This document shows, piece by piece, positions 12,136 through 14,667 of a stretch of 19,996 nt of DNA; position 1 is the first letter of the stretch, and the number at the start of each line of letters is the position of its first letter. Source of the stretch: a virus. Both the position numbers and the translations under genes were made by a program. The stretch lies in the UHGV virus genome UHGV-0195695; one strand, 5' to 3'. Under the pieces are notes generated by a model. The model saw only the letters and a program-made list of their open reading frames with translations. It searched no databases and was not told the origin of the DNA.

Positions 12136-14667
12136 ATGCCAGTCGTACCAACAGTATCCGGACGCCAGGTTGAGAGCCGTGGAGTTCAGTCAGCAGGCTT
12201 GCAGACGTTTTCTCAGCCAGGTATTGGTGATGCTTTTGTTCGGGCAGGGACAGAGGCAATTGATGTTCTTGGTCAGGCAAAACAGCGCGCCAATATTGCC
12301 TTGGTTCAGGAGGCATCCCTTAAACTCAGTCAGACAGGCAGTGATCTGCTGAATAATCCTGAAACAGGATTGCTTAACCTGAAAGGGAAAAATGCTATTG
12401 GAAAAGGCCATGAGTATACACAGCAGTTTGATGCTCAGATCGAACAACTGGCTATGTCGCTGCCGGATGAACAGGCTCGTAATGCTTTCATGCAGCAGGC
12501 GCAGCAGCAGCGTATTCAGTTCGCTACGCAGGCCGGGAGGTACGAGATAGGGCAAATAAATGCCTACGAAGAAGGCCAGTTTCAGGCGACACTGCTGAAT
12601 AATGGTAAAAATGCCTCAGCATTATATGGCGACAACGCAGCATACATATTGGCTAATACGCAAACTTTCCAGCAAATTGAGGATTACGGTATTGCGCATG
12701 GCTGGAGCGACGAGCAAATCCAGGCCAAGAAAATCGAGTTTAAAGAAGCAACAGCAAAAGCAACTGCTCAAAATGCTATTGGAGCAAACTATCTTCAGGT
12801 AAGACAGCAAAACGGCGAGTTAAGCGATACTGCTGCTGGATCTCGCCGTGCTGTAGCAGATAGTGGCTCTTCCGATCGTACCCGCGGTATACGCAACAAT
12901 AACCCCGGCAATCTTGAATACAGCAAAACTAATCCGTGGGTTGGGCAGACTGGTGATGATGGTCGCTTTGCCAAATTCGAAACCCCTGAACACGGTATTC
13001 GCGCGCTTGGTCGCAATTTGCTGTCGTATCAGCGTCAGGGTTATGACACCATCAGCGAAATAATTAATCGCTGGGCACCGGCCAGTGATGATAATAAAAC
13101 TGATGCTTATATACGGGCAGTATGTGCTCAGCTCGGTGTAACTCCTGACCAGCCGCTTGACGCATCAAATCCTGACACACTGAAATCTCTGTGCAAAGCA
13201 ATTATTCATCATGAGCAAGGCAGTCAGCCGTACAGTGATCAGCAATTGGCCGCTGGCGTTAGTGCCGCACTGGGGCTTTCTCAGCTACCGACAAAAAATA
13301 AACGTTATACCGGTGTAGCCTGGTTCGATGCTTTAAGTGAATCAGATCAGGCCAGCGTGTTGCGACAGACGGATGCATTAGCCAGACAGCAGCAGGCTGA
13401 ATATAGAACGATGCTCGAAAGCCGGGTTCGCGATGCAACGGCTGCGTATATGCGTGGCGTTGAATTTCCTAACCCGCCTGGTGAGGGTGAGTTCATTGCT
13501 GCTTATGGTGTCAGAGAAGGAAACCTGCGATATACCGAGTTCAGAAATTTGCAGATCGCCGGACAGTATATAGGCTCTTTCCGCAACATGCCGACAAGCA
13601 GCATTACCGCATATGTTGAGCAATTACGCCCGGATACTGGTGAGACAGGGGAGGGGTATGCGTCTCGTGCGGAGTTATTCGACCGGGTATCGGCGGCAGC
13701 CACGAAGGTAATAACCCAGAGGCAGAATAATCCGTTTAGTGCAGCGGTGGAAATCGGAGCCTATAAGCCGATCACCAGCAACAACCCTGACGACATCACT
13801 GCCGAGGTGGCTAACCGTTTCTCGTCGCAGGAAAGCTTACGCGCGTTGGGAATTAATGCCCCAATCCTCAACAGTGAAGAGGCGGCTGCGCTGGCACAGC
13901 AGGTGCGCGGCACTCAGAACGTTGACCAGACAATTAAACTGTTGCAGAGCATGGGGGAGAAGCTGCCTGCGCCAGCAATACGGCAGGTGGCATCTGTAAT
14001 TGCTCCGAACAGTGCGGCAACAGCCTATTCTGCGCTGCTGCTGGGCACGCCGGATAATCAGTACGATAACACCAGACCGTCGATCCCATATAGTCAGTTC
14101 ATCGGGTATAAGCCGACGATGAACAAGTACGACGTTGCAAAGGTTATTCTTTCCGGTGACCAACTACTGAATCCGACGAAGGCCATGAAGAATGCGGGCA
14201 TAACTCCGGTACAGTTGCCGAGCGAAGATAAGATGAAAGACGCTTTCGACAAACAGGTAGGTAACGCATTTGCCCGTAACCCGCAGTTACGTCAGATCAG
14301 TTATAGCCTTTTCAAAGCCGCTTACGCAGGAATAGCTTATCAATCAGGTGATGCATCTACGGTAAGAACCAGTATGCCTGATACAGACACTGTTGCTGAT
14401 GCCGTGAAGTATGCTACTGGCGGTATATACAAGGATTTTAATGGCGGCGACGTTGTAATGCCTTTCGGCATGGATAAATCTACTTTCAAAGATCGCTATA
14501 CCACATCTGCGAAACAAGCACTGAAAGAAGCCGGACTTAACGTAAATGCAGTGTCAAACTTCACACCAGTTAATATCGGCAATAACCGGTATCGGCTGGT
14601 AAATGGTAGCGGACGCTGGGCAACAGATCCCAGAACCAATGAAGCTATTGTCGTGAGGGTTGAATAA
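12136..14667 (+). CDS. Large hypothetical protein (843 aa); resembles phage virion-associated/ejection proteins (unverified)
   Basis: AGGGGG RBS; ATG overlaps the stop of a 19-codon upstream ORF (12077-12136). Gln/Ala-rich helical-looking N-terminal region, then a conserved-looking block SDRTRGIRNNNPGNLEYSKTNPWVGQ...FAKFETPEHGIRALGRNLLSYQRQGYDTISEIINRWAP. No Walker A motif. Confidence 0.8.
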   Translation: MPVVPTVSGRQVESRGVQSAGLQTFSQPGIGDAFVRAGTEAIDVLGQAKQRANIALVQEASLKLSQTGSDLLNNPETGLLNLKGKNAIGKGHEYTQQFDAQIEQLAMSLPDEQARNAFMQQAQQQRIQFATQAGRYEIGQINAYEEGQFQATLLNNGKNASALYGDNAAYILANTQTFQQIEDYGIAHGWSDEQIQAKKIEFKEATAKATAQNAIGANYLQVRQQNGELSDTAAGSRRAVADSGSSDRTRGIRNNNPGNLEYSKTNPWVGQTGDDGRFAKFETPEHGIRALGRNLLSYQRQGYDTISEIINRWAPASDDNKTDAYIRAVCAQLGVTPDQPLDASNPDTLKSLCKAIIHHEQGSQPYSDQQLAAGVSAALGLSQLPTKNKRYTGVAWFDALSESDQASVLRQTDALARQQQAEYRTMLESRVRDATAAYMRGVEFPNPPGEGEFIAAYGVREGNLRYTEFRNLQIAGQYIGSFRNMPTSSITAYVEQLRPDTGETGEGYASRAELFDRVSAAATKVITQRQNNPFSAAVEIGAYKPITSNNPDDITAEVANRFSSQESLRALGINAPILNSEEAAALAQQVRGTQNVDQTIKLLQSMGEKLPAPAIRQVASVIAPNSAATAYSALLLGTPDNQYDNTRPSIPYSQFIGYKPTMNKYDVAKVILSGDQLLNPTKAMKNAGITPVQLPSEDKMKDAFDKQVGNAFARNPQLRQISYSLFKAAYAGIAYQSGDASTVRTSMPDTDTVADAVKYATGGIYKDFNGGDVVMPFGMDKSTFKDRYTTSAKQALKEAGLNVNAVSNFTPVNIGNNRYRLVNGSGRWATDPRTNEAIVVRVE

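Follow-up and report, generated by a model that had tools for sequence, protein, structure and literature searches.

A probable Enc34-type peptidoglycan hydrolase domain in an epsilon15 gp15-like protein carried by a satellite-like island

The virus genome UHGV-0195695 (19,996 nucleotides; the window, below, means this whole stretch of DNA) carries at 12136-19483 three consecutive genes that are ~77% identical in nucleotide sequence to gp15-gp16-gp17 of Salmonella phage epsilon15 and its relatives. The first of them encodes an 843-aa protein with a conserved mid-chain block that resembles the catalytic domain of certain phage peptidoglycan hydrolases, and the genes upstream resemble those of a phage-inducible chromosomal island (PICI). 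The features of the three genes and of the block are:

12136..14667, plus strand: 843-aa open reading frame (ORF), orthologue of epsilon15 gp15 (internal virion/ejection protein), full-length phrog_992
12136..12555, plus strand: N-terminal ~140 aa of the 843-aa protein, ~95-97% shared with prophage versions that differ in the remainder
12877..13278, plus strand: probable peptidoglycan-hydrolase domain of the Enc34/PHA02564 type (aa 248-381), reaching slightly beyond the end given in an earlier reading
12892..12912, plus strand: RNNNPGN motif (aa 253-259)
12976..13275, plus strand: recombination patch in the domain, a drop in identity between island copies otherwise 97-100% identical
13069..13080, plus strand: RWAP motif, in which W313 corresponds to Enc34 Trp79 (alignment to 7q47)
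13108..13110, plus strand: Y325, corresponding to Enc34 Tyr95
13210..13221, plus strand: HEQG, in which E360 aligns with Enc34 Glu131, the proposed catalytic residue, and Q361 stands in place of a near-invariant Asn
13216-13218, plus strand: Q361, the Gln for Asn beside the putative catalytic Glu
14667..16727, plus strand: gp16-like protein of 686 aa with a variable central segment, phrog_1145
16727..19483, plus strand: gp17-like virion structural protein of 918 aa, phrog_684 (E 5e-295), 89% aa identity to the orthologue in a Citrobacter prophage (L007)

A sequence-only reading of the window had singled out a peptide at 12868-13260, and this peptide (SSDRTRGIRNNNPGNLEYSKTNPWVGQTGDDGRFAKFETPEHGIRALGRNLLSYQRQGYDTISEIINRWAP...) matches the plus-strand translation exactly, as residues 245-375 of the ORF at 12136-14667. 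The block was said to sit between low-complexity flanks rich in Gln and Ala. The composition stands (Q+A content is 33% in aa 100-244 and 24% in aa 376-445, as against 15% in the block), but the low complexity does not, long helices being predicted there instead. Of the candidates scored in a search with the block and short flanks (aa 240-400) against a collection of 5.8 billion proteins, 2,033 reached E <= 1e-3. A profile was then built from 40 aligned, diverse homologues and run against 1.84 billion cluster representatives, which yielded 18,559 matches at E <= 1e-3, 13,293 at E <= 1e-10 and 4,018 at E <= 1e-30. Residues that had looked invariant by eye (RNNNPGN, W..G, F..F..P..GIRAL, RWAP, N..Y, HENG) proved to be invariant or at least 90% conserved in the 40 homologues, where the columns G, R, A, Y, A, P, N and Y are without exception and RNNNPGN, W, F..F..P, I, RW, T and E-N are conserved to at least 90%. 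Conservation was also scored in the best 148 domain instances, which are representatives of 50%-identity clusters. N256, N259 and E360 are each present in 148/148 of these, F281 and G287 in 147/148, G258 in 146/148, P257, A314 and P315 in 145/148 and Y325 in 144/148; W313 is kept in 133/148, the remaining instances having Y or F. Judged by sequence similarity, which is far above chance, the block is a real feature and its pattern no accident.

Scans with Pfam-A and NCBIfam gave no match for either the 843-aa protein or the block (Pfam at E <= 1). A phmmer search of all PDB sequences returned two chains only, both aligned within the block: chain L of 9vvp (Gp29, 1295 aa, through its residues 3-151; E 4e-39) and 7q47, the catalytic domain from Hafnia phage Enc34's endolysin (E 1.7e-16). 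A profile of 30 orthologues recovered the same entries (4e-42 and 3e-22) with alignments confined to aa 246-381, and the whole-protein profile had no PDB match outside the domain. By tblastn, the block is 39.6% identical to BSPM4 M4Lys (E 2e-20). The AlphaFold2 (AF2) model of the block is compact and helical (mean pLDDT 87), and a Foldseek search of the PDB with it found 7q47 as the sole significant match (E 2e-11, TM 0.74); the block is predicted, from this model, to have the helical fold of the Enc34 catalytic domain. Structure matches in BFVD were to entries named "Virion protein", "Internal virion protein D" and "tail-fiber/lysozyme", and among PHROGs the block alone matched families labelled endolysin, tape measure protein and tail injection transglycosylase. 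The sequence matches place the block in CDD PHA02564 'V virion protein' (the Enc34/M4Lys type), which is named 'structural protein P5' after corticovirus PM2.

Members of this family have been characterized. Cernooka et al. 2022 (PMC8943055) assign the Enc34 domain to CDD PHA02564 and report lysis by it of E. coli, P. aeruginosa and H. alvei cells with a permeabilised outer membrane. Its Glu131 coincides, on superposition, with the Glu that is catalytic in GH73 and GH23 enzymes, and Trp79 and Tyr95 are conserved helpers (PMC8943055). The "V virion protein" domain of M4Lys degrades purified peptidoglycan with release of N-acetylglucosamine (GlcNAc; PMC7143992). When a one-residue offset in chain numbering is allowed for, the HMMER alignment to 7q47 maps Enc34 Trp79, Tyr95 and Glu131 to W313, Y325 and E360. 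The earlier proposal that a structural protein contains a globular domain with a catalytic or binding role thus agrees with the confident AF2 model and with the retention of all three Enc34-type catalytic residues. Its comparison with phage virion-associated proteins was apt, as the family is found in internal virion, tape-measure and tail-injection proteins and also in endolysins. The suggestion of a peptidoglycan-hydrolase-like fold gains support from the PDB sequence matches and the Foldseek match to 7q47, catalysis itself being argued from homologues. The lack of profile or structural matches and of conservation had been named as grounds for abandoning the idea; matches and conservation are both present. 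We consider it likely that the block, which lies between helical regions of an epsilon15 gp15-type ejection protein, is a virion-associated peptidoglycan hydrolase's catalytic domain of the Enc34/M4Lys (PHA02564) type.

The protein that contains the block matches phrog_992 ("head protein") over its full length (E 1e-289), and its orthologues in complete epsilon15-like prophages of Citrobacter and Salmonella share 80-82% aa identity with it. Homology to epsilon15 gp15 likewise extends over the full length, and the gp15-gp16-gp17 synteny is kept. The gp16-like protein is more variable: tblastn against the gp16 homologue of the Citrobacter prophage (L007) matched its N- and C-terminal parts only. 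Its centre (~aa 245-490) is without counterpart in the 521-aa Citrobacter prophage orthologue, and aa 158-286 have a weak PDB match to a 'Peptidase C39-like domain' protein (E 0.031). Searches of the PDB with the gp16-like and gp17-like proteins gave insignificant matches only. In the prophages, the gene order is portal, Bbp19, GP7 capsid, Bbp16, Gp10-like, tail genes, a T7_gp14-family core protein, gp15, gp16, gp17 and tailspike, and the Citrobacter prophage locus continues to holins and a GH19 endolysin. The epsilon15 literature, as cited in PMC12391199, is the basis for placing the epsilon15 gp15-type protein in the virion and for its presumed ejection at infection. By this precedent and by analogy with T7 and P22, the 843-aa protein would be located in the virion and ejected as well.

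A complete epsilon15-like prophage of E. coli AF10 (L004 9001-11622) provides a natural domain replacement. Its gp15 homologue of 873 aa is near-identical over residues 1-140, has a Pfam SLT domain at aa 233-339 (E 1.6e-17), the position of the block (245-375) in the 843-aa protein, and is unrelated to the 843-aa protein in its C-terminal part. The occurrence of two sequence-unrelated wall-cutting domains at one position argues strongly that the job of this segment is wall cutting. Comparison of island copies indicates that the block itself has also been exchanged. Against one copy (L010), nucleotide identity falls to 58-83% at 12976-13275. Between island copies, the domain has a synonymous divergence (dS) of 0.85-1.25, compared with 0.08-0.24 in the flanks, with omega (dN/dS) of 0.09-0.12. 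The gp16 and gp17 genes of the compared copies are 99.5-99.7% identical in one comparison and 98.1-99.7% in the other. Relative to epsilon15, the dN/dS of the domain is 0.057. The high dS and low omega of the domain thus point to a block that was exchanged by recombination yet is under constraint. The patch at 12976-13275 coincides with the catalytic half of the domain. The interchange with SLT and the recombination patch together show that podophage ejection proteins swap wall-cutting cassettes.

The three genes are the cargo of an element (1446-12039 and 12136-19797) whose remaining features are:

1321..1341, no strand assigned: att core CAGATTCAGAATATCGAATAA in attP configuration, where the right end of the island is joined to its left end; the 21 bp are the last 21 nt of yicC
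1446..11466, plus strand: PICI-like chassis comprising integrase, AlpA, Rha/Ant/BRO-N, DUF4222, DUF927 primase-helicase, SSB, ProQ/FinO and a 138-aa ORF
1446-2798, plus strand: tyrosine integrase ORF, with the RefSeq start at 1530
3917-4135, plus strand: AlpA
7773-9899, plus strand: DUF927 primase-helicase
11833..12039, plus strand: 68-aa ORF directly upstream of the ejection genes, 90% identical to a 68-aa ORF in another PICI-like element (L006)

The combination that marks PICIs (integrase, AlpA and primase in ~20 kb, without capsid, terminase or lysis genes) is present, and the annotation of the window contains no capsid, portal, terminase, tail, gp14 or lysis genes. When the proteome of an epsilon15-like prophage is compared with the window, counterparts are limited to gp15, gp16, gp17, a 50-aa ORF and a BRO-N domain; so few common genes rule out that the window is itself such a prophage. 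The 68-aa ORF may be a shared leader of the late operon of these satellites, its counterpart in the other PICI-like element preceding a ClpP-protease/major-capsid fusion gene. Epsilon15 gp3 was compared with this ORF and is unrelated. The 138-aa ORF (11050-11466) matches a PHROG anti-repressor family (aa 57-127) and a 'terminase' family (aa 5-68, E 2e-10), and the latter similarity could bear on packaging. With PADLOC defence models, neither gp15-17 nor their neighbours gave a match. RefSeq annotates an identical chromosomal copy with a frameshifted PerC-family regulator (11475-11700) and a truncated Icd-like gene (7066-7221).

By its sequence, the window is the excised form of this island. 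Its positions 1321-19996 equal 14901-33576 of a chromosomal island copy (L003) and its positions 1-1341 equal 33577-34938 of the same copy, so that the window is the chromosomal island circularly permuted, exactly one island unit long. The permuted attP junction and the one-unit length indicate an excised circle or a concatemer as the source, and the evidence for site-specific excision and circularisation is that of sequence. A similar attP-type junction occurs on a 1.8-kb metagenome contig (L020); IMG/VR viral contigs were searched for it with no match. The copy in E. coli strain 20 (99.9% identity) has its integration site at the 3' end of yicC. The same cargo is also found with a different, 404-aa integrase in an element that adjoins tRNA-Gly and has the 16-bp direct repeat TTCCCTTCGCCCGCTC at 3860-3875 and 23008-23023 (L005). 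The junction between chassis and gp15 is present in 44 of 5,426 complete E. coli genomes, and the exact 843-aa protein is listed in 512 blocks of an assembly collection. With up to 10% divergence in gp15 between island copies, gp15, gp16 and gp17 are intact with constant lengths of 843, 686 and 918 aa, and island-versus-island omega is 0.02-0.26. A second gp15-17-like locus is carried by 17 of the 37 complete genomes with the island-type module, compared with any such locus in 7.2% of the others, a count that is uncorrected for clonality and in which the second loci are known from matches alone. These loci suggest co-residence with putative epsilon15-like helper prophages.

A precedent for this arrangement is the PICI EcCIMP1 of E. 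coli MP1, for which experiments showed excision when the temperate podophage Kapi1 is induced, and transduction by that phage, and whose PerC-like gene is a repressor of the LEE, the locus of enterocyte effacement (Pick et al. 2025, PMC11773190). EcCIMP1 and the island have in common an integrase, AlpA, AntA/B (59% identity), DUF4222, a DUF927 primase (62%) and PerC, followed after the primase by an ejection module with a wall-cutting domain. We re-annotated EcCIMP1 (L015, NZ_CP139039.1 3557000-3587000, locus 12632-18827) and found downstream of the primase DUF2824, P22_gp7, Inj_translocase (P22 gp20) and a 905-aa gp16-like "DNA transfer protein" with an SLT domain at its N-terminus; on these domain matches, the genes form a P22-type ejection module. 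The original authors treated the same genes as packaging candidates and did not identify ejection proteins (PMC11773190). The module of EcCIMP1 is thus of P22 type with SLT, whereas that of the island is of epsilon15 type with a PHA02564-type domain, and the primase and AntA/B identities argue for an EcCIMP1-like satellite that has an epsilon15-type ejection module. Literature searches for satellites carrying ejection proteins brought up nothing explicit apart from EcCIMP1. We tentatively propose, as a reading that may well prove wrong, that the window is an excised PICI-type satellite with a complete helper-matched ejection set (gp15, gp16 and gp17) as its only virion cargo, that it forms with EcCIMP1 a class of satellites equipped with DNA-entry machinery of their own in place of genes for capsid remodelling or packaging, and that the block is an exchangeable cassette within it. 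If this is true, the ejection set might secure or retarget entry of the satellite or might interfere with entry of helper or superinfecting phages. A satellite that takes ejection proteins along, and not capsid or packaging genes, would exploit its helper in a different manner, with possible effects on superinfection; EcCIMP1 is reported to alter superinfection by its helper.

Several observations weigh against the assignment of the block to a wall-cutting ejection protein and lend themselves to other explanations. For the 843-aa protein and epsilon15 gp15 alike, we infer activity, bond specificity and virion location from relatives. The full-length AF2 model, computed from 30 orthologues, is too poor for a fold search (pLDDT 59.7, pTM 0.35), leaving the placement of the domain within the protein loosely predicted. 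The island is without the T7_gp14-family gene that directly precedes gp15 in the complete prophages (L004 and L007-L009). Data for M4Lys suggested products of both a glucosaminidase and an endopeptidase, making the cleaved bond uncertain, and these data, like the analogy with GH73, favour a glucosaminidase. Finally, Q361 adjoins the predicted catalytic Glu, so that activity could be altered. The near-invariant Asn that follows this Glu, a family feature drawn from our own alignments, is missing from the 843-aa protein: position 361 is Asn in 145 of the 148 diverse family members and Gln in none, and HENG is found in 114 of 120 orthologues, HEQG being limited to a clade of at least 97% identity. 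This restriction would fit a domain that is catalytically weakened or dead in this lineage and serves as a wall-binding module or structural spacer, which we regard as unlikely because the signature residues, E360, W313 and Y325 among them, are otherwise all intact, the amide group is kept in a change from Asn to Gln, omega of the domain is 0.06-0.12 and the exact protein is very common (512 blocks). An SLT/GH23-type lytic transglycosylase, which would cleave between N-acetylmuramic acid (MurNAc) and GlcNAc with formation of 1,6-anhydroMurNAc, is what current labels imply. GenBank AAO06078 is annotated 'putative lytic transglycosylase' on the basis of an HHpred match to SltB (4anr), Kayfunavirus homologues are labelled 'peptidoglycan transglycosylase', the sister protein has SLT at the same position, and a distant common ancestry of the Enc34 domain with GH23 has been argued by its authors (PMC8943055). 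We give this identity a rather low probability: Pfam SLT (PF01464) has no match at E <= 1 to the protein or the block but detects the AF10 sister protein, our positive control, at 1.6e-17, and the block model has no significant structural match to GH23 enzymes. The GenBank label on epsilon15 gp15 names the wrong family.

Two further explanations concern the role of the gene in the element. As the island has no capsid, portal, terminase, tail, gp14 or lysis genes and contains PerC and Icd-like pseudogenes, the module might be inert cargo, a decaying fragment of an epsilon15-like prophage that was captured and is out of use. This is very improbable in view of three genes that remain intact and equal in length in copies with two different integrases, of the island omega values, of a junction found in 44 complete E. 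coli genomes, of the excised attP form of the window and of the analogous module in the validated PICI EcCIMP1. Slighter still is the chance that the domain is the endolysin of the element and lyses the host, as in Enc34, chi-like phages, D3112 and BcepGomr. Stand-alone family members and those fused to a transmembrane domain are indeed lysis endolysins, but here the domain lies mid-chain in an 843-aa virion protein with no adjoining holin, spanin or membrane anchor, and the complete relatives have their own holins and GH19 endolysin, epsilon15 also having a separate endolysin. The separate lysis cassette of complete relatives thus argues that the gp15 domain is not a lysis enzyme.

Under our preferred reading, a wall-cutting domain in an ejection protein, the 843-aa protein would be packaged inside the capsid together with gp16 and gp17 and, at infection, expelled through the short tail into the periplasm. 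There, the domain would cut glycan strands locally, with E360 as general acid and W313 and Y325 positioning the sugar, as proposed for Enc34 and GH73/GH23 enzymes. Through the resulting hole in the wall, the ejection proteins would build a trans-envelope conduit for DNA. In function, the domain would thus correspond to the SLT domain at the N-terminus of T7 gp16, and it would not be a lysis enzyme. On the satellite, the enzyme would presumably help particles that are made with an epsilon15-like helper phage to enter cells. The domain is under-annotated and not novel, as it belongs to a known, characterized enzyme family and lies in a known type of virion protein. The assignment provides a correct annotation for a very common E. 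coli protein that is "hypothetical" in RefSeq, and for a family that has no Pfam-A or NCBIfam model despite 18,559 representative clusters. Three features merit pursuit, namely the satellite setting, the exchange of the cassette with SLT and the natural N361Q variant, the last being a ready-made test of structure and function in a little-studied enzyme family.

The domain recurs in a range of phage proteins. A tblastn search with the block found it in 813 of 50,697 phage records. The carriers include gp15 of epsilon15-like phages (87% identity), the N-terminus of the gp16-type "internal virion protein with endolysin domain" of Kayfunavirus (61%), endolysins of D3112/JBD26, BcepGomr and chi-like phages, "structural protein P5" of corticovirus PM2, a tape measure protein and a P1-like "tail injection transglycosylase". 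One of the cluster representatives matched by the domain profile (P0241, 762 aa) aligns with it in four stretches.

Among known systems, the closest counterpart of the 843-aa protein is epsilon15 gp15 (AAO06078/NP_848223), an orthologue of 842 aa that aligns end to end, is 87% identical in the domain and keeps the synteny. The epsilon15 protein has HENG where the 843-aa protein has HEQG, and it is encoded after gp14 in a complete phage, whereas the 843-aa protein is encoded on a PICI-like island without gp14. The Enc34 ORF39 endolysin (7q47) and BSPM4 M4Lys are ~26-kDa lysis proteins with a C-terminal transmembrane domain and belong to lysis cassettes; unlike in these, the domain of the island is internal to an 843-aa virion protein. 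In gp16 of Kayfunavirus (K1F-like relatives of T7), represented by Gp29 of 9vvp, the same domain (61% identity) is part of an ejected podophage core protein, where it forms the extreme N-terminus, while it is mid-chain in the gp15-type 843-aa protein. By tblastn, 9vvp Gp29 shares 99% identity with Kayfunavirus gp16 in its N-terminal sequence; in phage CLB_P1 that gp16 is the 1295-aa "internal virion protein D", encoded after gp13, gp14 and gp15. A literature search found no paper for PDB 9vvp; the Xacm4-11 and GP4 papers, considered as its source, concern other proteins, and tblastn points to Kayfunavirus gp16.

T7 gp16 offers the functional parallel. It carries an SLT lytic transglycosylase domain at its N-terminus (residues 1-156, Glu37) that is needed when the wall is highly cross-linked, and wall cutting is thus performed by an ejection protein during genome entry (PMC8954989), much as we propose for the 843-aa protein. 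The T7 domain belongs to another sequence family, Pfam SLT, which has no match to the 843-aa protein, and its core helices are in a different order.

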